The translations under genes were made by a program, and so were the position numbers. From Candidatus Iainarchaeum sp. (lineage in GTDB: Archaea; Iainarchaeota; Iainarchaeia; Iainarchaeales; GCA-2688035), in NCBI GenBank assembly GCA_028713935.1, contig JAQTNI010000035.1:1-13947 (forward strand): DNA of 13,947 bases, written 5' to 3'. Within the stretch, counting starts at the first letter, position 1, and each line of letters begins with the position of its first letter. The notes under the pieces are model-generated. The model was not told the DNA's origin and did no database searches. It worked only from the letters and a program-made list of their open reading frames with translations. This document shows positions 2,206 through 13,947 of the stretch, piece after piece.

Positions 2206-5200
2206 TTATTTTGCCCTGTGCTTTTTTTCAGCCCTTAACCTGAACATGAATATTGTGCAGAGCAAAAGCGAAAGAAATACAAGCATTGCAATTCCTTCTG
2301 GCAAAGAAGGCAGGTTGAATGGCATTCCGCTGCCTCCCCCGACATTCACTGTCAAAGGATTTCCGCCTGGAACCTGTGAAACTTTTCCATCAGCGCCAAC
2401 AGCAGTGCTGAAGCCTTTCTGCCTGAAGGCCTCGTCAAGCGGTATTAGCTGGGCATTTTCAGGATACCAATTGCCTGTTGAAGGGTCATACCAGAAGCTT
2501 CCATTGGGGCCAGTTGCAGTCTTGAGAATTTCATTTGGCTGCTTGTTATAGGAAATAACAGGGGCACCGTTTTCAGCTCCAAAATCAAGGGTATGGGTTT
2601 GCCCATCGGCAGTAGTGAATTTTATTCCAGTGGGAGTTTTTTCTATTGCGCCGTTAATTGGCTGGTCATAAACTTCTCCAGTTTGCTTGTTAATCATTTT
2701 GAAATACGGTTTGCAAACCCCGTTTTCAAGCTTGGAGTAAAAGATGTACCTGTGGGTGTCAGTGTCAAAAACCTGGAAAGGCCCCATTTTTTGCATTGAT
2801 GCATTGAAATTGTCAACTTTTGCGGCAATTGCATCGCTGCCTGACTTCGGGATTGCTTCAAGGTTAATGGCAGGCTCTTCACATTGTGTTTCAGGATTTT
2901 TTACTGTTGTTGGAGTTGCAATCAAGCCTTCAACATCGTTCTGATTCAAAATCGCCTTGTCATGCCTTTTCAGCCAGATAAGCAATTCGTTTGTTTCTGC
3001 CTTGTAAACAATTACTCCCTGTTCAAACTGGATCGACTCCATTTTTCCGACTCTTGCAAGACCCTTGCCGCCCGCATTGCCTGACAATTCAATGTCCCTG
3101 CTTGCATTTATTGAGGCGGCTGCACTGTCACCATAAACAATTTCCCTTGGGATGCCTTCAGCAGTGATTGTCTTGCTTAATTCATCGGCAACAATGCTTG
3201 GATGGGTGTCAGAAACAATTGATTTTACTTTTCCGAATGCATCGCTTAAATTCTGGCTGTTCAGCTTCACACCTGTCTGCTCTTCAACTCCCTGTTTAAT
3301 GCAATTCAAAATGCTTTGCCCTACAGGGGAGGTGGTATCAACAAGCAATTCGGAATTTATTCCCATCTGGAAAATTCTGTCTGTAGAACCGGAAGGCAAA
3401 ACAATTTTTGTCATTCTCTGGGGAATTTCCCAGGCAGGAATGTTTCCGTTAGGCGCAGCCAATCTTACCTGGTCAGGAGTTGTTATTACCGGCTTTCCGT
3501 CAAAAGAAATCTCTCCTTTTGCATTGTCAATTTTCAGTTCAGTGCCATTGTCAGTGTCCTTAATCAGTGCCTTGCTTGTTTTGTCATATTTTGAGGCATT
3601 CTGCTCTCCCTTGTACCACAAGAAAAACAATTGCTTGCCTTCAAAATTTCCCGTTGTATAATTTTTTGCATCAACTTTTGCCTGCAAAACAGATTTTGCA
3701 TTTGCCTTGTCGGCAAGCTGCTGTGTTTCCTCTTTTACCTTGTCTTTTACAACATCAACAAAAGTCTTTGACTTGTCATCAGGATTAGAAGGGCCGAGAA
3801 CGCTGCCTGTCAGGTTTTTGAAAATGTCAGTGGCTTTTTCAGAGCCAAGCTGATTTGGAGTCTCGGCTTTTTTTTCCTGTTCTTTTGCAGGCGCAAAAAT
3901 ATGTATGTAATACCCTTCCACATCATCAACACAGTCCTGGAATTCTGGTGCAATCAAAATCTGCTGCATTGCAGAGCCGAAAATTCCTGGCCAGCCGAAA
4001 ACAAAGTAACCCATTGTTTCGCCGAAAGAAAGGAAAGCCCCTATTCTCTGTGGCTTGCCATCAACAATTTTTCCAAAAGAGCCGACAATTGGAATTTTTT
4101 CCAAAGCATCTTTGCAGGTTTTCTTGTCATTCTGCGCCTGCACCAAATCCAATTTTGTATCCCCTGCATCTGATTTTTCAGGGCCTGTCCAGTCAATATT
4201 TGTGTGGTGCGCAAAAGAAATAAGAGTAGAGCCTTTTTCCTTTGCATCATCAGAGATAACATCTTCAAGCAGTATGCTGCTTAATCCTTCCCTTGTTTTC
4301 AGGGAAATTCCTGCAGTGCCAATTCCTGTTTCTGGATTAACTCCTTTTGGGGCATAATTCCAGCTGCAGGTTTTGCATTCATCGCCTGTCTGGGAAAACA
4401 ATGCAACATTTTCAACATTCGACCTATAACCTGCAGGGCCTTTTCCAGTAATATAATTAAATTTTTCTTCAAGTGGCTTGTATTGCTCTGTTGCCTTGTT
4501 CAAAATCATTTTCCATGGCAAAACATTTAAAACCTGGGCAAACAAATCGCCTTCATCGCTTCCTTCGTTTGCAAAAAAATCCATGAAAGCATCATTGTAC
4601 AATTTTGTTTCTCCAAGGGAAAGCTGGGCTGCTCTCCAGGAATCAGGCAACTGGTAAGCAGACAATCCTTCAAAGCCAACTCCTCTTTTCAGGCCCCAGT
4701 AAACAAAAGGCATTACTGTCCATTTTGTGCCTCCTTTCAATGAAAAATAACTTTTTAAAATTTCTTCTTCCTGTGCCATTGCCTTGTCAAGCAAAGACAA
4801 ATACCTGCGGTTCTGGCCTGCCCAGCCTTTTTCAATCAATGCATTGTACAGCCTGTCTGCATGGAGATTCATGTTTCCCATAATCCTGCTTTTCACCCTG
4901 TATCTAGTGAATCTTGCTGCCCAGTCTTCAGGAGTCATGTCAATTTCAGGCTTCCATCCAAGGTCATAAACCCTTATTTCCCCTGTAGGAGTGCCGCTTT
5001 TCAGGATATGCCCAACAGAAGTGGAGTCAAGCTTTATGAATTCACCATTTTCAAGCTGGATCATTTTGTCCTGGAACCTTGAAAAGTGCTTTTCAACATC
5101 CTCTACTGTATAAGAACCCAAAAATTTTCCAGTCGGGTCTGGCTTGTACATTTTCAAAAATCCATCAGGAGTTGTTTCAAAAATCCTTGCATAGTCTCCC

Positions 5201-6846
5201 CCGGGAGGGCTGGCTTCCCAATTTGCCCAGGTTCCGTCCCTTTCAAATTTTGCCATTATTCCGTTTATATTGGCAGAGTCTTCAGTCAGGGTAATCATTG
5301 TGCCTGTTTTTGCATCCTTAACAGCCATATTATATATGCCGGCTGCCTCGTCCTTTGCCCAGAATTCAGGATAATCCAGCCTTGTCACCCTGTCCATGTC
5401 TCTCATCAGCCTTGAAGTTTTTTGGCCATAGTCAATTAATGCTGATTTTCCTTCAATGCTGTCCATTCCATATTTTTCAACTATCTTGGCGTATTCACCG
5501 GAATAATCATCTATCAAGGCACTGTTTGTTTTTGCAAAGCTTCTCCATTCTTTTATAAGCTTGAAAAATTCTCCCCGCCTTACAGGGTCTGTTATTTCAG
5601 TGTCAAGCTTTCCGCCTGCCTTGAGCCAGTCATCCAAAAGCCTTCTTGTGCTGCCGCCTTTTATCATTTGATAGCCTTCCTGCCAGCCAGTTCCTTCCCA
5701 TAAAATTTTTCTGTACTCCCCAAAGCCGAACTTGTCAATACGCGCAGCAGTATTGGCAGCCCTTGCATCCCCAAGCAGAGAGCCTGTTGTCATAAAATTT
5801 TTTCTGAATGCCTTGACAAAAGAATTGTTAGACAAGTCCCAGGGCCAGCCTCTTCTCCCCAAATAACCAAGATATCTTTTTGCCTGTCCAAGCAAGGTTG
5901 GGCCAAAATTGCTTATCACCATTTCAGAAGAAAACCAGGAATTAAAATATTTGTCAAAAGCACTGTAACTGCTGATTGTGCAGTCAGCTGTCTGGCAAGT
6001 AGAGCCGATTTCAGCGCCAAAAGACTGGGTCTTAATGCTGTTTTTAATTGGATTTCCTGGAACTCTTGAAACCTGTTTATAAGTTACTTTTTCAGGGTCT
6101 GTTTCAGAAGCCAAGGCAGTCTTGATTTGCTCTGTTTCCTTGTCAGTATAAGTATCCTCCACATCAGGCCCAATTCCAACCCAGTCTTTCAAATCATTCC
6201 AGACATTCTTGAAATCCTGTGTTATTCCTTCTCCGCTGTTCCTGAATTCTAACTGCCTGTCAATCATTGGGCAGGAATTCTGGTTCTTGTCCAATTGAGA
6301 CTGCAAATCTTCACATCTTCCAATTCTCAAAGTATCGTCAAGGGAAATTCCAACTGCAAAAGGCCCCTGGCTTGACTTGTTAAACAAAAAAGGGGCTTCT
6401 CCGGGATTAAATTTTAAGTCAGGCAACGTGTTCAGGAAAGCCTCATTGCCATTCCCTGTTGGGAGAACTATTTTTGAATTTTCAAGCTTGTCCCTGTCAG
6501 CAGGCTCGGTTTTTTTTGCATCAGGCGCTTCAATTGCTTTTCCAGTAAAAGGCTTTGCATTTAATTCGTCAAGGCTTTGCACTGCCTGTTTCAGCTTTGC
6601 AATCTCGCCTGGAAGCAAAACAGTTTCTCCAGGCAAAGTGTTTGAAGGATTTTTGCAGGCAAACTCAGTGAGTTTTCCGGTGTCATTTGTTGCAGGAGGA
6701 GTTGCGGGCTCAGAAGGCGGAACTGTTGTGCCATCAGTGCCGGTCCCTGTATCTGAAGCGCCTGTTTCTGCAAAAGCAAAACTGCTGTTTAAGATAAGCG
6801 CAATCAGCAGAATGCTAAAAAAATCAGCTAACTTGTTTTGCTTCAT
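2206..6846 (-). CDS. Giant (1546 aa) secreted, C-terminally membrane-anchored surface protein; candidate S-layer protein or adhesin, family unknown
   Basis: Uninterrupted 4.6-kb ORF. The ATG at 6846 gives MKQNKLADFFSILLIALILNSSFAFA|ETGAS, a Sec-type signal peptide with an AxA site. A Thr/Pro/Gly-rich linker follows. The ectodomain has 12 Cys and many N-x-S/T sequons. The C-terminus is LPSLPEG + IAMLVFLSLLLCTIFMF + RLRAEKKHRAK (motif, TM helix, basic tail). The track start at 6852 is a TTG two codons upstream. Confidence 0.9.
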   Translation of the reverse strand: MKQNKLADFFSILLIALILNSSFAFAETGASDTGTGTDGTTVPPSEPATPPATNDTGKLTEFACKNPSNTLPGETVLLPGEIAKLKQAVQSLDELNAKPFTGKAIEAPDAKKTEPADRDKLENSKIVLPTGNGNEAFLNTLPDLKFNPGEAPFLFNKSSQGPFAVGISLDDTLRIGRCEDLQSQLDKNQNSCPMIDRQLEFRNSGEGITQDFKNVWNDLKDWVGIGPDVEDTYTDKETEQIKTALASETDPEKVTYKQVSRVPGNPIKNSIKTQSFGAEIGSTCQTADCTISSYSAFDKYFNSWFSSEMVISNFGPTLLGQAKRYLGYLGRRGWPWDLSNNSFVKAFRKNFMTTGSLLGDARAANTAARIDKFGFGEYRKILWEGTGWQEGYQMIKGGSTRRLLDDWLKAGGKLDTEITDPVRRGEFFKLIKEWRSFAKTNSALIDDYSGEYAKIVEKYGMDSIEGKSALIDYGQKTSRLMRDMDRVTRLDYPEFWAKDEAAGIYNMAVKDAKTGTMITLTEDSANINGIMAKFERDGTWANWEASPPGGDYARIFETTPDGFLKMYKPDPTGKFLGSYTVEDVEKHFSRFQDKMIQLENGEFIKLDSTSVGHILKSGTPTGEIRVYDLGWKPEIDMTPEDWAARFTRYRVKSRIMGNMNLHADRLYNALIEKGWAGQNRRYLSLLDKAMAQEEEILKSYFSLKGGTKWTVMPFVYWGLKRGVGFEGLSAYQLPDSWRAAQLSLGETKLYNDAFMDFFANEGSDEGDLFAQVLNVLPWKMILNKATEQYKPLEEKFNYITGKGPAGYRSNVENVALFSQTGDECKTCSWNYAPKGVNPETGIGTAGISLKTREGLSSILLEDVISDDAKEKGSTLISFAHHTNIDWTGPEKSDAGDTKLDLVQAQNDKKTCKDALEKIPIVGSFGKIVDGKPQRIGAFLSFGETMGYFVFGWPGIFGSAMQQILIAPEFQDCVDDVEGYYIHIFAPAKEQEKKAETPNQLGSEKATDIFKNLTGSVLGPSNPDDKSKTFVDVVKDKVKEETQQLADKANAKSVLQAKVDAKNYTTGNFEGKQLFFLWYKGEQNASKYDKTSKALIKDTDNGTELKIDNAKGEISFDGKPVITTPDQVRLAAPNGNIPAWEIPQRMTKIVLPSGSTDRIFQMGINSELLVDTTSPVGQSILNCIKQGVEEQTGVKLNSQNLSDAFGKVKSIVSDTHPSIVADELSKTITAEGIPREIVYGDSAAASINASRDIELSGNAGGKGLARVGKMESIQFEQGVIVYKAETNELLIWLKRHDKAILNQNDVEGLIATPTTVKNPETQCEEPAINLEAIPKSGSDAIAAKVDNFNASMQKMGPFQVFDTDTHRYIFYSKLENGVCKPYFKMINKQTGEVYDQPINGAIEKTPTGIKFTTADGQTHTLDFGAENGAPVISYNKQPNEILKTATGPNGSFWYDPSTGNWYPENAQLIPLDEAFRQKGFSTAVGADGKVSQVPGGNPLTVNVGGGSGMPFNLPSLPEGIAMLVFLSLLLCTIFMFRLRAEKKHRAK

Positions 6847-6853
6847 ATCCAAC

Positions 6854-7387
6854 TTAACCCCAATATAACAGGAAAACTATTCCGTTTATTATCCATGGAA
6901 ACACGAAAAGTATTATTATTGTTACCAAGAGGCCTGTGCAATAGGCAATAACAAAATTTTTTGCCAATTGCGGAAACTTTTTTTCTTTGAGCTTGTCAGA
7001 AGCGAATTCCGCAAAAAATTCAAGTGGCAGCACTATTATTGTAAGGATAAGCGCATTGACAAGGATTTTCAGGATTGTGAGAAAAATAGCGACTGCAATG
7101 TCAGCGGGAGTTATTGCAAGCATGCCTGGCGGTATTTGCTTTGCAAGAATGCTTTCTGAAAAGCCAAGGTAATAGGGAAAGACGTATAGAAAAATTAATA
7201 TTATTGTTACTGCCAAATATGTTGCAATCAGCGCGCTTTGAATCCAGTTCAGGCTGAATTTTTTTACAAGCCAGTTTTTGAAGAAAAGCGCTGGAATTGA
7301 AACTAAAAAAAGAGGAATTGCAATTATAAGGGCAATCCTGAGCAAATCAATTATGCCGAGTGCAATTGATAAAACATCAAGGGCCAT
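6854..7387 (-). CDS. Polytopic membrane protein (177 aa, about 5 TM helices), unknown family; likely co-transcribed with the giant surface protein gene
   Basis: ATG at 7385-7387. The sequence has long hydrophobic stretches separated by short charged loops. Its TAA at 6854-6856 lies only 7 nt before the ATG of the giant gene. Confidence 0.8.
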   Translation of the reverse strand: MALDVLSIALGIIDLLRIALIIAIPLFLVSIPALFFKNWLVKKFSLNWIQSALIATYLAVTIILIFLYVFPYYLGFSESILAKQIPPGMLAITPADIAVAIFLTILKILVNALILTIIVLPLEFFAEFASDKLKEKKFPQLAKNFVIAYCTGLLVTIIILFVFPWIINGIVFLLYWG

Positions 7388-7419: not shown

Positions 7420-7508
7420 GATTATTAAATCAAAAAAAATATACATTACTGGCAATTTGCTGAAATTTGGGGAATGGTGGATTTTTGGCAGAAGAAATTC
7501 CAAGAAGA

Positions 7509-8294
7509 ATGAAGCGCTTTTACAGGAAACCCGAAACAGAAGAAGCTGCTTTCGGGAATTATGACAGCACTGAAACAAGGGAACCTGTGCAGAAAGCTGA
7601 AAAAAAAGACATCAAAGACCTTATTCTGGAAGACATCAATGCACAGGAAAAAAAAAGCCCAAAAGCAATGGAAATAGCAGTGGGGCAGGTAAGCGAATTC
7701 AAGGCAAAACACAACAGGCTGCCAAGCCCGGACGAATATGACCAGATAGCGGAAAATATTTTTGGGCAGTTAAAAGAAAAAGAAGAATCCCAAAAATTTT
7801 CTGAAGCAAAAGGCAGGGAAATAAAAAGAATCCCAACAATTGCACAGGGAAACCAACAGGCAGCAGAACAGCCTTCACAGCAGGCCCAGAGAAGAGGCAG
7901 GACAAAAGCAGAAAGAATGGCTGCAAAAACAGGCACTGGCTTTGAAGAAGGGCAGCAGGCAGCACAGGAAAGTTCCCTGAACCAAAGCGAATTGAAAAAA
8001 CTTGAAATAAAGGATTTGCTGAAAGAAGATTCCGATGAATTAAAAGAATTTGAAGAAGGCAACGAAGAAGAAAATTCGGAATCTGAAGAATCAAAAGAAT
8101 TCAATCTTTCGGAATTGGGAAACGAAGAGGAAACAGGGGAAGAAAAATGCCCAAATTGCGGAAAAACAACTGAAGAAATAATTTTTTGCCCGGAATGCGG
8201 AAGCGCTTTCTGCGAACAATGCGCAAAAATCGAGAGAATAGGAAGCGAAAAAAAAATTGTCTGCCCAAAATGCGGAAAAACAACAAAAAAATAA
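7509..8294 (+). CDS. Acidic, low-complexity protein with a C-terminal 4x CxxC (double zinc-ribbon-like) domain
   Basis: ORF in the track, which starts at TTG 7467; the first in-frame ATG is 7509. The middle region is Glu/Lys/Gln-rich and includes a repeated IKDL[IL].ED motif. The C-terminus is CPNC-x9-CPEC-x4-CEQC-x13-CPKC (8148-8291). The start codon is uncertain: a TATA-like AATATACA at about 7437-7444 would also fit a transcript starting near 7467. Confidence 0.75.
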   Translation: MKRFYRKPETEEAAFGNYDSTETREPVQKAEKKDIKDLILEDINAQEKKSPKAMEIAVGQVSEFKAKHNRLPSPDEYDQIAENIFGQLKEKEESQKFSEAKGREIKRIPTIAQGNQQAAEQPSQQAQRRGRTKAERMAAKTGTGFEEGQQAAQESSLNQSELKKLEIKDLLKEDSDELKEFEEGNEEENSESEESKEFNLSELGNEEETGEEKCPNCGKTTEEIIFCPECGSAFCEQCAKIERIGSEKKIVCPKCGKTTKK

Positions 8295-8313: not shown

Positions 8314-8619
8314 ATGATTAGAGAAGTCTGGGTTCCAGGAAATTCTTTTCGTACGGGGCATTACGAAAAGCAACCAACCGGCCAGGTAAGGATTGAACCG
8401 TGCATAGTCGGCCAAGAAATCGATAGATGGCCTCTGCGCAGAATGCCAACAAAGCCACAGGGAAAAAAATCCAGGCATGCAGGAAGGCACGGAATGCTCG
8501 GAGCCGGCCCTTCCAGCGGAGGAAGAGGAAAAAGGCATGGCAGTGCAAAATCACGCAAAAGCGCAAAACAAGGCGCGAGACCACAACGCGAAAAGAAAAA
8601 ACAGAAAAAAAACAGATAA
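8314..8619 (+). CDS. Possible extremely basic 101-aa protein (MIREVWVPGNSFRTGHYEKQPTGQVRIEPCIV..., then a Lys/Arg/Gly/Ser-rich tail)
   Basis: ATG 8314 lies 19 nt after the zinc-ribbon gene stop, with no T-tract in between. An oligo-T (aattttttcc) follows its stop. However, all three + frames are open across 8430-8620 because the strand is T-poor, so the ORF may be compositional. Confidence 0.35.
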   Translation: MIREVWVPGNSFRTGHYEKQPTGQVRIEPCIVGQEIDRWPLRRMPTKPQGKKSRHAGRHGMLGAGPSSGGRGKRHGSAKSRKSAKQGARPQREKKKQKKNR

Positions 8620-8627
8620 CTTGTTGC

Positions 8628-9476
8628 TTAACTGGTTGGAATTTTTTCCCATTCCCTGCCGCTTCTTTTCCATGAAGAACTGCACTGCAGCTCATTAAGC
8701 ACATCTTCAGGCACAACAGTTGAAACCCACATTGCCAAGTTCACCTGTGCTGCTTCCAGATTGTCATTGCCAGAGGAGTTTTGTGAAATAAGGCGTATCC
8801 AGCTTTCTGACTTTGAAACAGAGCCGACATTTGAAAGCAGGCCCTCAACCTTATGCACATTTGCAAGGCCGGAAGCAGGATAGCACAAAAAAATTACTTG
8901 TTCAGTATCCAAACATGCATTGCCCACCCAAACCATTGTTGGATTTGCAGTGCAATTAGCCTTATCCAAGTCATTGCTGGTTGTGCGGTGCAATGAAAAC
9001 AAAAGGAAAATAAGCCCTGCATTGCCTCCGGGAGTAATAGTGCCACTGCAGCCCGGATCAGTCGGGCTTATGCAGTCAGTGGTTGAGCCTCCTGAATTGT
9101 AAATGTAAAAAACATAATCATAATTATCCTGGACAGGTTCCATTATGCCCACAATATTGTTTGCCAAAAGCCCGGCAGTGCTGTTCAATTTTTGGTCATC
9201 TGCAAAATCCTCTTTTACCCTTGCAAGCAAATAATCAACTTCAGGTGTTTCTTCCAATGCCTGGCCTTCAATCCTGGGAGTGCTGCTTTTGAAAATTGTC
9301 TTGAAAGCAGAGGCGGCATATTCGGAGCCATACTGCCTTTTTATCTGTTCAACGACAGTATTCCCATAAGCATTGGAAATTAAAAAAAGCACAATGCACA
9401 AAGCTGAAACAATCATCAAAAAATAAAGCGAATCAGTGATTGCAGCCTGGCCCTTCTCATCAGAATTCAGCGCCAA
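8628..9476 (-). CDS. Class III signal peptide (type IV pilin-like) surface protein, 282 aa; last gene of the pilin-like operon
   Basis: The N-terminus LALNSDEKG|QAAITDSLYFLMIVSALCIVLFLI has a KGQ prepilin-type site followed by a hydrophobic helix. The TTG start at 9476 is preceded by GGTGGTGG and overlaps the upstream gene's stop by 10 nt. There are 6 Cys outside the helix. Confidence 0.75.
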   Translation of the reverse strand: MALNSDEKGQAAITDSLYFLMIVSALCIVLFLISNAYGNTVVEQIKRQYGSEYAASAFKTIFKSSTPRIEGQALEETPEVDYLLARVKEDFADDQKLNSTAGLLANNIVGIMEPVQDNYDYVFYIYNSGGSTTDCISPTDPGCSGTITPGGNAGLIFLLFSLHRTTSNDLDKANCTANPTMVWVGNACLDTEQVIFLCYPASGLANVHKVEGLLSNVGSVSKSESWIRLISQNSSGNDNLEAAQVNLAMWVSTVVPEDVLNELQCSSSWKRSGREWEKIPTS

Positions 9477-10153
9477 CTAACCACCACCAAAAGCATTGGC
9501 TTTACAAAAAACCTTTCCTCAAAAGCAATATTGCTGTTTTTCAAGGATTCCTTTTGAGAAAGCGGGTAAAACTTTCCTGCACTATCCTTCAAATAATCCC
9601 TTGCCAATGCAACGGGAAAAAAATTCACATTATAAAACTGCGGAACTGCCTCATCAGTGCCAATGTTTGAACAAAAAAACCTTTCATCTTCAGAAGTTGC
9701 CTCAATAGGCAGGAAAAAAATTGTTTTGTCGGAAAATTCTTTTCCATCAGGATTGAAGTGCTCTGCAGGCGAGCCAGCAAGGGAAGATGCGCCTGCAAGA
9801 GGATTTGAAGAAAGCTCAACAAGGCCGACAACAAATTTTATTCTTTTCACTCCGCTCTGTGCATTTGCACAGCTTTCCTTGAAACTGTCAAATCCTGCAA
9901 CATAAGAATTGCCCCTCATTATCGAAGCAAGGTCAAGGACATCTTTGCTGTCATCAAAAAACCTGTTTTTCTGGTCAAAAGCATTCCAGGCAAAAGTAAA
10001 GGAATAAAAGAAAATTATAAGGGCAAAAACAAGCGGAATTAAAGAAGGCAAATCATCCCCAATCGGGCCTAGAAAGCCTTTCGAAGCGCTCGCTGATGCT
10101 CGCTTTCGAAAGCCTTGGGAAATGCTTCGCAGAAAACCTTTATTTGATTTCAT
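9467..10153 (-). CDS. Pilin-like or N-terminally anchored surface protein, 228 aa, with an unusually long basic leader containing a duplicated KGFL motif
   Basis: ATG at 10153 forms an ATGA overlap with the upstream stop (10150-10153). The N-terminus is MKSNKGFLRSISQGFRKRASASASKGFLGPIGDDLPSLIPLVFALIIFFYSF. The mature part has 2 Cys. Confidence 0.7.
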   Translation of the reverse strand: MKSNKGFLRSISQGFRKRASASASKGFLGPIGDDLPSLIPLVFALIIFFYSFTFAWNAFDQKNRFFDDSKDVLDLASIMRGNSYVAGFDSFKESCANAQSGVKRIKFVVGLVELSSNPLAGASSLAGSPAEHFNPDGKEFSDKTIFFLPIEATSEDERFFCSNIGTDEAVPQFYNVNFFPVALARDYLKDSAGKFYPLSQKESLKNSNIAFEERFFVKPMLLVVVSWR

Positions 10154-10926
10154 TGCGAACCGCCGGTACAAGATTCACAACCTGGCCTGAAGCAGGATTT
10201 GGCAGGCGGGTCAACAGGAGGGCAGCCAGTGGTTGTTCCAATGGGATTGTTAATGCCTGGCAAACTGTCAAACACTCCGCCAGGAATGCAGAAGCAGCTT
10301 GAATCATGGGCTTCCACATTTGGAATGCAGCCGCTCTTGATTTTTACCCTTATATCCTGCATATTGCCATAACAAATATCGCTTGTAAAAGAACAGGAAA
10401 TTACATACACATAATTTTTTCCCTTGAAGGTTTCTTTAATCAGCATAAAAGAATTCTGCGGATTTGCAGCCTGGGGGTCAACTACAATTGAATTTTTTTG
10501 CTTTAAGGCGTCAATGCCGGTGGCATTATCATAACTCCATTCAAAAAGAATTATTTCAGCGTCAATGTCAATGCTTTTTGCAGCAATAATCCTGTTCTGC
10601 TCTCGCCTGTTCACAATTGAAAAAATCAGTGTATTATTTTCTCCTGAAACAGTTGTTTCGGGCTCCCTTGAAATTTTCATTGCATAAAAAAAATCCTTTG
10701 AACCCCCAAAATATTTTATTGCGGAAGGAATGTTAACAGGGGAAGAAAAGCAAAGCTTGTTTGAATTTGCAATTCCCAATGCCTGCTCTGCCTTTGCATT
10801 TACCATTTGGGTTGCTGAAGAAGCGACAAAAAAATCTGTCAAGCCGAACATAAAATAAGCCACTATTGCAAACAAAGCAGTGACTAAAATCAGGAGGTTC
10901 ATTTTGCTAAGGGCAAATGCAAGCAA
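10150..10926 (-). CDS. N-terminally anchored surface protein, 258 aa, with a Cys-rich C-terminal tail; unknown family
   Basis: The TTG at 10926 is preceded by GGGTGAT (SD-like). An alternative ATG at 10902 gives MNLLILVTALFAIVAYF. The protein has a single N-terminal hydrophobic helix and 10 Cys, concentrated in the last ~90 aa (...SCFCIPGG...GCPPVDPPAKSCFRPGCESCTGGSQ). Confidence 0.7.
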   Translation of the reverse strand: MLAFALSKMNLLILVTALFAIVAYFMFGLTDFFVASSATQMVNAKAEQALGIANSNKLCFSSPVNIPSAIKYFGGSKDFFYAMKISREPETTVSGENNTLIFSIVNRREQNRIIAAKSIDIDAEIILFEWSYDNATGIDALKQKNSIVVDPQAANPQNSFMLIKETFKGKNYVYVISCSFTSDICYGNMQDIRVKIKSGCIPNVEAHDSSCFCIPGGVFDSLPGINNPIGTTTGCPPVDPPAKSCFRPGCESCTGGSQ

Positions 10927-10930
10927 TCAA

Positions 10931-11497
10931 TCACCCTGCACATGAACCCGAGTCTTCCCTGCAATAAGCGCAGACAGTCGGAAAACTCGCGCTCGTTTCC
11001 TTGTTATTAAAATAAATCACTCCCCTTGGCACAATATCAACAAATTCTTCCAGCAAAATTTTTTTTTCAGAAGCCTGCAAGTCAGGGCAGTCAGGGGAAC
11101 TGAAAACAGTGTTGGGATTAATGTTCAGGCATTTTTTGAAATAAACCCCTTTCTTTGAATTTGAATATTCCAAAAGCCTGCAGATGCTTGCGCCAGAACT
11201 GCAGTAATCAGCGCAGACCTGCGGCCTTTCACTGTAACTAATTTTTATTGTTTCATCTTTTGGATCGTAACAATCGGCCCTGAAATCAAGGAATTGGGGG
11301 CTTTTCTGGTTAATTACAATTTCAAGCTTGGTTTTCAGGTCTTCTAATTTCTGCTCTGTCTGCTGGGAACATCTCTGCTCGTCAAGAGTTGTCATTGCCT
11401 TCAAGCCGATGAACAAAACAAAGCCCATTATAATAACTGCAATAAGCAGTTCAAAAGGCGCTTCTTCCTGCCCTTTCCTGCCCAAAAAGTGAAACAT
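10931..11497 (-). CDS. Class III signal peptide (type IV pilin-like) protein, 188 aa, Cys-rich
   Basis: ATG 11497 gives MFHFLGRKG|QEEAPFELLIAVIIMGFVLFIGL. This has the basic leader, KGQ site and hydrophobic helix with acidic residues near the N-terminus of the mature part. The ectodomain has 10 Cys and ends TVCAYCREDSGSCAG. Confidence 0.8.
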   Translation of the reverse strand: MFHFLGRKGQEEAPFELLIAVIIMGFVLFIGLKAMTTLDEQRCSQQTEQKLEDLKTKLEIVINQKSPQFLDFRADCYDPKDETIKISYSERPQVCADYCSSGASICRLLEYSNSKKGVYFKKCLNINPNTVFSSPDCPDLQASEKKILLEEFVDIVPRGVIYFNNKETSASFPTVCAYCREDSGSCAG

Positions 11498-11541
11498 AAA
11501 ACTACCCAAATGAAATTCAAAAAAATAATTAAAAATTCCGC

Positions 11542-11706
11542 TTAATTTGAGGTTGCGGGAGTTGTTTTTCTCACTAGCTTCTGGCTCTGCTGGAACATTG
11601 GCTTAATCACTGCAATCAGGGCAATTGCGGCAATCACCAGAATCAAAAGCATGTAAACAGAACTCCACTCGCTCTGCGCCTTTTCTTCAGCAAAAAAACC
11701 CTTCAT
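11542..11706 (-). CDS. Small (54 aa) class III signal peptide protein; candidate short major pilin and first gene of the operon
   Basis: ATG 11706 gives MKGFFAEEKA|QSEWSSVYMLLILVIAAIALIAVIKPMFQQSQKLVRKTTPATSN. The K[GA]Q-S-x-E + hydrophobic helix pattern resembles the short archaeal Class_III_signal-type pilins. A TATA-like box lies upstream. Confidence 0.7.
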   Translation of the reverse strand: MKGFFAEEKAQSEWSSVYMLLILVIAAIALIAVIKPMFQQSQKLVRKTTPATSN

Positions 11707-11736
11707 AACAAACCAATAACAAAAAGGCAAAACAAG

Positions 11737-11744
11737 TATTTAAA
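11737..11744 (-). promoter_or_regulatory. TATA-box-like TTTAAATA, 31-38 nt upstream of the small-pilin ATG; candidate promoter of the five-gene operon
   Basis: The + strand reads tatttaaa at 11737-11744, which gives TTTAAATA on the minus strand, preceded by the purine-rich AAAGGGCAG (BRE-like position). It lies in the 195-nt divergent intergenic region shared with hicB. Confidence 0.4.
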
Positions 11745-11872
11745 ACTGCCCTTTTCTTTTTTCTTTCTAAAAAAAATTGCCAATTTTTGCTCAAATCTGG
11801 ATAAGAATTTGTGTTCTTTGATTAAGCAGTGAGTTGTTGGCGGTGTTGTTCAACAAGGGTTTTAAATTGTTG

Positions 11873-11901: not shown

Positions 11902-12174
11902 ATGAAAGAATATAAAAATGAATTTCCTGTTTCTTTGCCTGTAATGGTAAGCAGGGAGGGAAAATGGTTTGTTGCCTCCTGCCCGCTGTTAGATATTGCC
12001 ACTCAAGGAAAAACAGAGAAAGAGGTAAAAGAAAATATGGAAGAATTAATACAAGACTATTTTTCTGATCCCGATACTGTGAAACCAACTGCCAATCAAA
12101 TTTTGTCTTCTTCTGTTTCTTTAATAAATGTTCCTGTAAAAGGGGTTTCTTTGTGCCAAAGCTCCAGCCGTTAA
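11902..12174 (+). CDS. hicB: HicB-family antitoxin (UPF0150/HicB N-terminal domain only, 90 aa)
   Basis: FPVSLPVMVSREGKWFVASCPLLDIATQGKTEKEVKENMEELIQDYF matches the HicB pattern (xxVxxxxEdGxyxAxxPxLxGxxTQGxTxEEaxxNxxEai). It overlaps the hicA start by 22 nt. No RHH/HTH-type C-terminal domain is evident. Confidence 0.8.
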   Translation: MKEYKNEFPVSLPVMVSREGKWFVASCPLLDIATQGKTEKEVKENMEELIQDYFSDPDTVKPTANQILSSSVSLINVPVKGVSLCQSSSR

Positions 12175-12374
12175 AACAATCCAAAGTAATAAAAATTCTT
12201 GAATCAAACTGTTTTGTACAAGCGCGTTCAGGAAAACACATCACTTTCAAAAAGACTGATTCTCAAGGAAAAGTTTTGACAACCTGGGTGCCACACCACA
12301 AAGAAGTCACTGTTTTTGTCATCAAATACATTATTCGGCAAACAGGAAAACCAAAAGAAGAATTCCAAGAATAG
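12153..12374 (+). CDS. hicA: HicA-family mRNA interferase toxin (73 aa)
   Basis: The GTG start is preceded by AAGGGG 9 nt upstream. (M)PKLQPLKQSKVIKILESNCFVQARSGKHITFKK...VPHHKEVTVFVIKYIIRQTGKPKEEF matches the HicA/YcfA pattern (MPKLPxxSxxExIKxLxxxGFxxxRxxGSHxxF...VPxHxxKELxxGTLxxILKQAGIxxEEF), including the conserved His of G-x-H. Confidence 0.85.
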   Translation: MPKLQPLKQSKVIKILESNCFVQARSGKHITFKKTDSQGKVLTTWVPHHKEVTVFVIKYIIRQTGKPKEEFQE

Positions 12375-12393: not shown

Positions 12394-12534
12394 TTAGTGT
12401 GAAGCCGCCTTAATTCTGCCTGCTTGAATATCTTCCAAACTGGATTCTAACTGGCACAAAATGTCATCGGCAAAATCCGCTTTTTTCTTCAAATAATCAT
12501 ACTCGCTTTTTGCAATAGTAACAGTTTCGGCCAT
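12394..12534 (-). CDS. Small 46-aa ORF not in the track (under 60 aa): MAETVTIAKSEYDYLKKKADFADDILCQLESSLEDIQAGRIKAASH; antitoxin-like helical protein, tentative
   Basis: I translated this by hand: ATG at 12532-12534 and TAA at 12394-12396, giving 47 codons. A TTTTTATATT box (12567-12576, minus strand) lies 33-42 nt upstream. The x(T/I)TIxxxEYxxL...DIxxGR pattern recalls small Phd/RelB-type antitoxins, but this rests on recollection only. Confidence 0.4.
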   Translation of the reverse strand: MAETVTIAKSEYDYLKKKADFADDILCQLESSLEDIQAGRIKAASH

Positions 12535-13771: not shown

Positions 13772-13947
13772 TTAGGCTCCACCAAAAAAGTTTCCCACTA
13801 CAAGATTGGCGATTATTACTGCTGCCAAAAAAACTCCGACTGCAATTGGCAGTGCGGTTGCAATGTTGATTCTTACAAGCAAATCATTGTCTTCCTCTAT
13901 TTTTGTTGTGAAATAACCCATTATTATCACAAGTTCTATTACATAAA
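13772..13947 (-). CDS. C-terminal end of a membrane protein running off the window edge, or alternatively a 49-aa membrane peptide from ATG 13921
   Basis: I translated this by hand: ...YVIELVIIMGYFTTKIEEDNDLLVRINIATALPIAVGVFLAAVIIANLVVGNFFGGA, ending at TAA 13772-13774. The frame is open to position 13947. It has a hydrophobic C-terminal helix and lies 16 nt upstream of the first pilin gene. Confidence 0.45.
   Translation of the reverse strand, partial: YVIELVIIMGYFTTKIEEDNDLLVRINIATALPIAVGVFLAAVIIANLVVGNFFGGA

Follow-up and report, generated by a model that had tools for sequence, protein, structure and literature searches.

GspHIJK and FimU-PilVWX are the priming complexes of bacterial filament systems. 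Among the archaeal systems closest to the locus described here is the Epd pilus locus of Methanococcus maripaludis, a 'system 1' archaeal type IV filament (TFF), which encodes the minor pilins EpdA-D, the EppA peptidase and a major pilin, EpdE, that has no head domain (10.64898/2026.04.22.720090). For archaeal type IV pili (T4P), loci have been described that encode five or more minor pilins together with Cys-rich components and large surface proteins; in some systems, those of the Thermoproteales, disulfides are expected between conserved cysteines, and the models as a whole include large adhesin or S-layer-like neighbors (PMC4858521). A published survey describes DPANN T4P islands that hold unrecognisable pilins (PMC6393860). 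The subject of this work is a block of five genes in the complete 13,947-bp contig of a Candidatus Iainarchaeum metagenome-assembled genome (MAG), a stretch of DNA that we call the window. We propose that the block encodes the minor pilins of a pilus peculiar to this lineage. Iainarchaeota are uncultured, ultra-small DPANN archaea, and to our knowledge there is no account of how they contact surfaces or other cells. A search of the literature on pili or prepilin peptidases of Iainarchaeum and Diapherotrites found no paper describing the locus.

The five genes lie on the minus strand and are labeled G1 to G5 in the order of transcription, the block spanning 8628-11706.

11542-11706, minus strand, G1: ATG start, 54 aa, a pilin-like protein lacking a head
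10931-11497, minus strand, G2: ATG start, 188 aa, pilin-like with a class III signal
10150-10926, minus strand, G3: TTG start, 258 aa, one helix and no [KR][GA] site
9467-10153, minus strand, G4: ATG start, 228 aa, a conserved motif ahead of the helix
8628-9476, minus strand, G5: TTG start, 282 aa, pilin-like with a class III signal

The public NCBI annotation of the contig has the same lengths and starts for all five, and calls every product 'hypothetical protein'. An initial annotation made from the sequence alone had described a translationally coupled operon of prepilin-like proteins, and most of its description is borne out. Re-measured on the sequence, G1 and G2 are 44 nt apart and G2 and G3 4 nt apart, G3 and G4 share a 4-nt ATGA, and G4 and G5 overlap by 10 nt, in agreement with that description. 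It had placed the start of G1 at 11730, which is the TTG of the longest open reading frame (ORF); we take the ATG at 11706, and the gene itself stands. Shine-Dalgarno-like sequences precede both TTG codons, GGTGA 6 nt upstream of that of G3 and GGTGG ahead of that of G5, and these match the archaeal Shine-Dalgarno core. Each protein contains exactly one strongly hydrophobic 19-residue window, close to the N-terminus, in keeping with the short leader and single helix ascribed to it. The processing sites that had been quoted are all present, i.e. KA/QSEW in G1, KG/QEEAPFELL in G2, KG/QAAITDSL in G5 and KG/FLGPIGDD in G4 (the slash marks the predicted position of cleavage), and G3 begins with MLAFALSK followed by the helix.

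To place the block in context, a G5 profile was scanned against one genome per GTDB species, giving 66 loci, and orthologues of the other proteins were found across these by iterated hidden Markov models (HMMs) on six-frame ORFs. The loci are nearly all labeled Iainarchaeum, Diapherotrites or 'archaeon'; Ca. Iainarchaeum andersonii is among them, as is GW2011_AR10, whose genome is complete. Some contigs are filed under unrelated phyla (L009 and L037 as Thaumarchaeota, L015 as Falkowbacteria, L016 as Chloroflexota, L043 and L047 as Micrarchaeota), which probably reflects mis-binning or mislabeling. The proteins of the window are one-to-one orthologues of the genes of relatives by BLAST. Upstream, the order in relatives is a T2SSE ATPase (~770-800 aa), a ~765-aa protein, the pilins, a gene for 54-57 aa and then the matches to G2-G5; downstream of G5 come a convergent Zn-ribbon gene, a ~180-aa membrane protein, a ~1,580-aa protein and riboflavin kinase. 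The order ATPase, platform, one to four pilins and G1-G5 is found in L001-L004 and in most of the 66 loci.

The window holds the end of this machinery next to the block.

13772-13947, minus strand: 3' end of the platform gene, divergent T2SSF/FlaJ-TadC-like (relatives: ~770 aa), truncated where the contig ends
13297-13755, minus strand: PilA-type canonical pilin, MKICNNKG/QAFDVFKLLIGAA
12663-13226, minus strand: PilB-type canonical pilin, MFFNEKG/QAFDVFKLLIAAV, candidate major subunit

It had been stated that no ATPase or platform protein adjoins the block. This is not so. The window ends inside the platform gene, and relatives have the T2SSE ATPase and the platform directly upstream; the apparent lack of nearby machinery arises because the contig stops there. 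Positions 13772-13930 are the last 52 codons of the gene, and are 94% identical to the C-terminus of a 769-aa protein at 4084-6393 of L003. The ~765-aa protein is a divergent platform of the FlaJ/TadC/PilC type, since 13 of 25 orthologues match T2SSF at E ≤ 0.01 (best E 2.4e-6); the match in L003 itself lies just under the Pfam threshold, at 23.3 versus 25.2 bits. The ATPase of the relatives matches Pfam T2SSE with E 1.4e-18, its best NCBIfam models are FlaI (139 bits) and TadA (119 bits), and among solved structures it is nearest to A. fulgidus GspE, CpaF and FlaI. Between the 3' end of the platform gene and G1 stand the two canonical KGQAFDVFKLLI pilin genes. The PilA-type and PilB-type pilins are mutually homologous (99.9% by hhalign), have a class III signal of the form KG/QAFDVFKLLI, and are present in one to four copies per locus. 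Compared with known archaeal pilins they give only non-significant matches, to 9myg (E 0.33) and 8gi2 (E 0.73). With the platform end and the pilins in the window, the main reason for treating G1-G5 as an orphan module is gone.

A second, short protein with a T2SSF domain (292 aa, E 1.7e-11) is encoded at 19900-20778 of L003, minus strand, and likewise at 19624-20505 of L001. Its gene adjoins one for a product of ~260 aa (20788-20819 of L003, cut by the end of the locus); a PAC2 gene is next to them, and the distance downstream from G5 is ~9 kb. These two genes may belong to a second type IV filament system, one whose platform is split.

Conservation of the gene order in relatives had been named in advance as a point on which the operon could fail, and the order is kept. 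G2, G3 and G4 precede G5 in 55 of the 56 loci with at least 2.2 kb of sequence upstream of G5. G1 was found in 46 of these 56, and the platform gene lies upstream in 25 of 34. G2-G5 are single copy in nearly every locus, with genes that overlap or nearly abut, and the gene coordinates on the contigs of relatives show that the tight coupling has been kept. The pilus locus is the most conserved surface-appendage gene cluster found among the 66 sampled genomes.

The N-termini of three of the proteins are pilin-like. Consensus sequences were built from 47-68 orthologues per protein. G1 has the leader MKGFFAEEKA/Q and the consensus [KR][AG]-Q-S-E-W-S-S-V-Y, with an invariant Tyr, followed by a KPMFxQSQ tail; its [KR][AG]Q is retained in ~90% of orthologues. 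The consensus of G2 is [KR][GA]-Q-E-S-A-P-F-E-L-L-I-A-V-I, giving the motif [KR][GA]/QESAPFELLIAVI, and that of G5 is [KR][GA]-Q-A-A-x-T-D-A-L-[FY]-F-L. Over G1, G2 and G5 together [KR][GA]Q is found in ~90-100% of orthologues, and the helix begins within 6-8 residues. Profile comparison by hhalign relates G2 to the pilins of the locus with 97% probability over 65-80 N-terminal residues, and G1 to the N-terminus of the neighboring pilins with 77% probability over 38 columns. G5 matches the pilins weakly and in the signal and helix region only, and G3 and G4 gave no match to them.

The cysteine residues had been counted as even in each ectodomain, 0, 10, 10, 2 and 6 for G1 to G5. The total counts are 0, 10, 10, 2 and 7, and one Cys of G5 is inside the membrane helix, so the figures agree. 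The columns kept across orthologues are also all even in number, with 8 in G2, 4 in G3, 2 in G4 and 2 in G5.

The heads had been said to resemble no known family, and the searches agree. Pfam and NCBIfam gave no family for G1-G5, Pfam none for all the orthologues of G2 and G3, and there is no precomputed Pfam domain on record for any homologue of G4, G5 or G2. In profile searches against PDB sequences, G2-G5 had no significant match. No resemblance to a pilin or archaellin family already described was thus seen in Pfam and NCBIfam for G1-G5, or in PDB sequences for G2-G5; the one link is that of G1 and G2 to the pilins of the locus itself. An HMM search with G4 of 1.84 billion representative proteins recovered just 242 relatives, of 85-250 aa, with no tie to a wider family. 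AlphaFold2 models were built for two of the proteins. That of G4, from an alignment of 67 sequences, has pLDDT 84 and pTM 0.70, with a disordered leader, a helix at residues 38-80 and an alpha/beta head. That of G5, from 15 sequences, has pLDDT 75 and pTM 0.68, with a helix at residues 6-63 and an alpha/beta head of ~7 strands. Both models thus have an N-terminal helix, of 43-58 residues, plus a head.

Taken together, these results point to G1-G5 as a lineage-specific minor-pilin/assembly-priming module of a type IV pilus of the Iainarchaeota (Diapherotrites, DPANN), a reading to which we would give a probability of about 0.68. The comparison with a minor-pilin set that had been drawn from the sequence is thus the best reading, given the linkage to ATPase, platform and pilins, the class III motifs and the homology of G2. 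On this reading the pilus is a known machine in a form specific to the lineage and not yet annotated, and is not a new machine; the missing motor genes are just beyond the contig end, and G1-G5 is a conserved accessory operon of the pilus cluster. Most simply, G1 would be a head-less pilin like Flp or EpdE, G2 and G5 cleavable minor pilins, G4 an atypical pilin-like protein and G3 an uncleaved anchor. The fixed 1:1:1:1 gene content of the four larger proteins together with their translational coupling suggests that they could form a hetero-oligomer, in analogy to the GspHIJK or FimU-PilVWX complexes.

Several observations weigh against this assignment. The N-terminus of G3 is M-[LI]-x-F-x-L-S-K-x-N-L-L-I-L-V, without a Gly/Ala cleavage site. 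In G4 the KG is separated from the helix by ~12 conserved polar residues. Searching for a prepilin peptidase, as polytopic ORFs with GxGD, GGGD or GxHD, found none within 10 kb of the 66 loci; the signature search of the flanks returned just members of the 177-aa membrane protein family described below, by chance. Foldseek searches of the G4 and G5 models against the PDB gave best E values of 0.4 and 0.07 respectively, with none ≤ 0.001 and no pilin, so their heads are not demonstrably pilin folds. Lastly, six loci of one subclade (L036, L041, L045, L049, L052 and L053) have G2-G5 without G1, pilins, ATPase or platform, as judged within ~7.5-10 kb of upstream sequence. Where the downstream side is covered (L036, L053 and partly L049), these loci keep the Zn-ribbon, membrane-protein or giant-protein gene beside G2-G5.

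The unusual N-termini of G3 and G4 merit further description. G3 is likely an uncleaved N-terminal anchor, judging from its consensus. It is unlikely to be a secreted protein cleaved by the Sec pathway; its hydrophobic stretch is ~20 residues long and the region after it is not conserved. The consensus of G4 is [KR]-G-[FY]-[LI]-G-P-I-G-D-D-L-P-S-L-I-P, with ten invariant residues ahead of the helix, [KR]G[FY][LI]GPIGDDLPSLIP. A feature of the helices was also observed. Counted from the cleavage site, residue +7 is Glu in 55 of 58 sequences of G2 (E16, numbered from the ATG at 11497), where the pilins have Lys or Arg in 48 of 72 (Lys in the PilB-type pilin), and G5 has an invariant Asp at helix position +6. 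The charge swap at +7 may be a contact between pilin and minor pilin, i.e. an inter-subunit salt bridge in the core of the filament.

For G1-G5 as a minor-pilin module, the following mechanism can be proposed. All five proteins would insert in the membrane by the N-terminal helix. A class III signal (prepilin) peptidase encoded elsewhere would cut G1, G2, G5 and the two KGQ pilins after [KR][GA]. G4 might either be cut after KG, or its conserved GPIGDDLPSLIP segment might stay at the cytoplasmic face, and G3 would be left uncleaved as an anchor. The four proteins with heads would be made in fixed proportion from the coupled genes, with 4, 2, 1 and 1 conserved disulfides to stabilize them. Their complex would sit on the platform protein, prime assembly by the FlaI/TadA-type ATPase, and end at either the tip or the base of the filament. 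The shaft might be built from the PilA/PilB pilins of variable copy number or from the head-less G1, and a role of the pilus in adhesion, for instance the cell-cell attachment suggested in the initial annotation, could be envisaged.

Most of the alternatives turn to some extent on the very large protein encoded downstream of the block.

2206-6846, minus strand: giant surface protein, 1546 aa, with a Sec-type signal peptide and a C-terminal NLPSLPE, helix and basic tail

Orthologues of the protein were recorded in 49 loci, and the gene is found downstream of the block in 41 of the 49 loci with enough downstream sequence. The orthologues conserve a C-terminal [FL]N[LI]PS[LV]PE, a hydrophobic helix and a basic tail, and the protein matches no Pfam or NCBIfam family. 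We considered whether it is a PilY1-like tip adhesin. This was rejected; it has no PilY1/PilC beta-propeller or DUF2341 domain, and has a C-terminal anchor instead. Its features suggest that it may be an archaeosortase-sorted envelope protein, because it has the Sec signal, the C-terminal motif with helix and basic tail, and an archaeosortase-family gene close to the locus in L001. The C-terminal motif resembles a sorting signal of the archaeosortase type, though not one described before, and the protein that carries it may be an S-layer protein or an adhesin. The gene in L001 (720-1295, minus strand) encodes a 191-aa member of the exosortase/archaeosortase family (TIGR04178, 41.5 bits where the cut-off is 23). 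Between this gene and that of the pilus ATPase, ~0.8 kb further downstream, stands a PIN/MazE toxin-antitoxin pair, and its product is a candidate for processing the PSLPE-tailed giant protein.

The alternative that survives best is that some or all of G2-G5, especially G3 and G4, stay in the membrane by the N-terminal helix and tie the base of the pilus to the envelope through the ~1,500-aa surface protein, by analogy with FlaF/FlaG, the archaellum and the S-layer. FlaF is an S-layer-binding, pilin-like anchor (PMC4425475). The absence of a cleavage site in G3 and the 12-residue conserved segment ahead of the helix of G4 would be explained. So would the presence of the membrane-protein and giant-protein genes beside G2-G5 in those 41 of 49 loci, and the retention of such neighbors, where the downstream side is covered, in the subclade that has no pilins or ATPase nearby. 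The signal peptide and the C-terminal PSLPE, helix and basic tail of the giant protein are typical of archaeosortase-sorted envelope proteins, and the archaeosortase-family gene adjoining the locus in L001 fits with this. Yet G2 and G5 have the canonical [KR][GA]Q, G2 is homologous to pilins, and most loci hold ordinary pilin genes as well. Moreover, the models of G4 and G5 are alpha/beta, whereas FlaF/FlaG are all-beta sandwiches, and neither profile searches nor Foldseek gave a match to FlaF or FlaG chains. That the giant protein is itself an S-layer protein is also unproven. We therefore consider this unlikely, though the least unlikely of the alternatives.

A related view, to which we give slightly less weight still, is that G2-G5 form a new class III-signal-dependent envelope complex of DPANN archaea serving the ~1,500-aa archaeosortase-type protein and not a pilus tip, because the block adjoins the gene for that protein in most loci, and neighbor genes are kept in the covered loci of the subclade without pilins, G1, ATPase or platform. 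If this were true, the complex would serve, as a pseudopilus or stalk, to position, anchor or extend the giant protein for contact with a host, and the invariant GPIGDDLPSLIP motif of G4, at the cytoplasmic face, would be a new docking or processing signal.

It is also improbable, and a little more so, that G1-G5 build a short, non-protruding filament that places or holds the giant protein or another cargo on the cell surface, instead of an adhesive pilus, in the manner of the pseudopilins of the type II secretion system (T2SS) or the bindosome of Sulfolobus. One small and four larger pilin-like proteins do parallel GspG plus GspH-K, the linkage to the giant protein is constant, and in the subclade G2-G5 stand beside the giant-protein gene with no pilin genes nearby. 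TFF machineries functionalized for surface display have been discussed (10.64898/2026.04.22.720090). However, most loci hold one to four ordinary pilin genes between the platform and G1, and there are no cargo-like class III binding proteins in the locus. The giant protein needs no extra export route, because it has its own Sec signal and C-terminal anchor. That the five are unrelated membrane-anchored surface proteins, outside any filament system and beside the pilus locus by chance, might seem to be favored by heads without detectable relatives and by the lack of a peptidase nearby, but is very hard to reconcile with the phylum-wide order and coupling beside ATPase, platform and pilins, the conserved class III motifs, and the relation of G1 and G2 to pilins by profile comparison.

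Returning to the block as the minor-pilin operon of a pilus, its transcription can be considered from the following signals.

11737-11745, minus strand: TATA-like box TTTTAAATA, ~35 nt upstream of the G1 ATG
11498-11541, minus strand: G1-G2 spacer, 44 nt, T-rich (TTTTTAATTATTTTTTT)
8591-8612, minus strand: oligo-T tract (T8, T6, T4), just past the G5 stop

Upstream of G1, 50-70 nt from its [KR][AG]Q codon, a TATA-like heptamer is present in 30 of 45 orthologous loci, compared with 3.2% of random positions. Given this conserved box, G1-G5 therefore appear to be a transcription unit apart from the ATPase, platform and pilin genes. Bacterial minor-pilin operons stand apart from pilBCD, and the arrangement of G1-G5 resembles that. 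A single promoter had been proposed for the block. The TTTTAAATA box is present, and one promoter is likely, but it need not be exclusive because the G1-G2 spacer (GCGGAATTTTTAATTATTTTTTTGAA...) is itself TATA-like with an oligo-T stretch. From its sequence, the spacer could possibly be an attenuator, a second start site or a site of partial termination after G1. Oligo-T has a recognized role in archaeal termination, and the tract after G5 is likely to be a transcription stop.

The remaining genes of the window are as follows.

7467-8294, plus strand: Zn-ribbon protein, in 57 loci, its gene always converging on G5 and diverging from that of the membrane protein
6854-7387, minus strand: polytopic membrane protein, 177 aa, in 52 loci directly ahead of the gene for the giant protein
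11902-12374, plus strand: HicA toxin gene (HicA_toxin, E 1.6e-8) with an overlapping small ORF upstream, between the pilin genes and G1
12394-12534, minus strand: 46-aa ORF, in the same insertion as the HicA gene
1505-2158, strand opposite to that of the ORFs at 166-501 and 525-1493: CTP-dependent riboflavin kinase with a helix-turn-helix (HTH) domain, by family matches, which fits an archaeon

The Zn-ribbon protein is Lys/Glu-rich and cytoplasmic, with an N-terminal PRRLRRFxR and a C-terminal double zinc ribbon in which four CxxC are conserved, and gives Zn_ribbon matches. Regulation of the giant-protein operon is a possible function. The 177-aa membrane protein has no Pfam or NCBIfam family and few conserved residues. 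It was considered as a hidden peptidase and rejected, having no conserved Asp pair. The ORF upstream of HicA has 90 aa and a HicB-like position, with no significant family match. This insertion is absent at the equivalent position in the gene-called relatives L001, L003 and L004, and the HicA toxin gene is outside the pilus system. Two very basic, Arg/Lys-rich ORFs on the plus strand, 166-501 (111 aa) and 525-1493 (322 aa), match no Pfam family. There are no tRNA genes in the window.

Through this analysis, proteins now labeled 'hypothetical' can be named and assigned a role that can be tested; for G4 alone these make up ~242 representative clusters. It also supplies motifs by which such loci can be found, i.e. 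[KR][GA]Q, KG[FY]xGPIGDDLPSLIP and MLxFxLSKxNLLILV. The five proteins and their giant neighbor are families that have no annotation or Pfam model, and for which no structural relative was found. Identification of an accessory operon overturns no current view, and it provides an archaeal counterpart for comparison with the bacterial minor-pilin/PilY1 priming complexes.

We can now compare the locus with the known systems. It is unlike the Tad/Flp pilus (Flp, TadE, TadF and TadG) in having no Flp G/xxxxEY motif, no TadV, RcpA or TadZ, and unrelated subunit sequences, but resembles it in an ATPase near CpaF/TadA and in a head-less pilin of ~45 mature residues followed by larger pseudopilins. FlaF/FlaG of the archaellum, with an uncleaved pilin-like helix and an envelope-binding ectodomain, are a possible model for G3 and G4, whose N-termini are of the uncleaved type. 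FlaF/FlaG are beta-sandwiches, in contrast to the alpha/beta models of G4 and G5, their sequences do not match, and the locus has no archaellins.

The bacterial FimU-PilVWX-PilY1-PilE and GspH-I-J-K sets have, like G2-G5, four different pilin-like proteins encoded in one tightly coupled operon, which is apart from the major pilin gene and can be apart from the ATPase genes. A further likeness is a very large non-pilin surface protein encoded adjacent, and a role in priming and in capping of the filament has been proposed. No homology to these sets was detected, one member here (G3) lacks the peptidase site, and the machinery and envelope are archaeal. The large protein here has no PilY1 domain, and its C-terminus is a membrane anchor or sorting signal.

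Among archaeal systems, the 'dark matter' T4P islands of DPANN (Makarova et al. 2019, Fig. 2A) similarly combine FlaI/TadC with signal-peptide proteins that match no known pilin family. That publication offers no description at the family level, has Diapherotrites only in the expansion of the DPANN acronym, and contains neither Iainarchaeum nor GW2011 in its text. Lastly, the Epd locus differs in that the Iainarchaeota proteins have no sequence match to any Epd family or to a Pfam class III signal model. In addition, the platform here is one fused protein of ~770 aa where Epd has two genes, the locus contains no peptidase of its own, and the N-termini of G3 and G4 are non-canonical. The Gln at +1 of the cleavage site is reportedly a feature of Epd as well. 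The two share a FlaI/TadA-type ATPase with a TadC-like platform, several co-transcribed minor pilins with class III signals, a very short head-less pilin such as G1, and large putative adhesins in the locus (PMC4858521; 10.64898/2026.04.22.720090). The architecture of G1-G5 fits the models put forward earlier for other archaeal T4P (PMC4858521) and the description of unrecognisable pilins in DPANN islands (PMC6393860).

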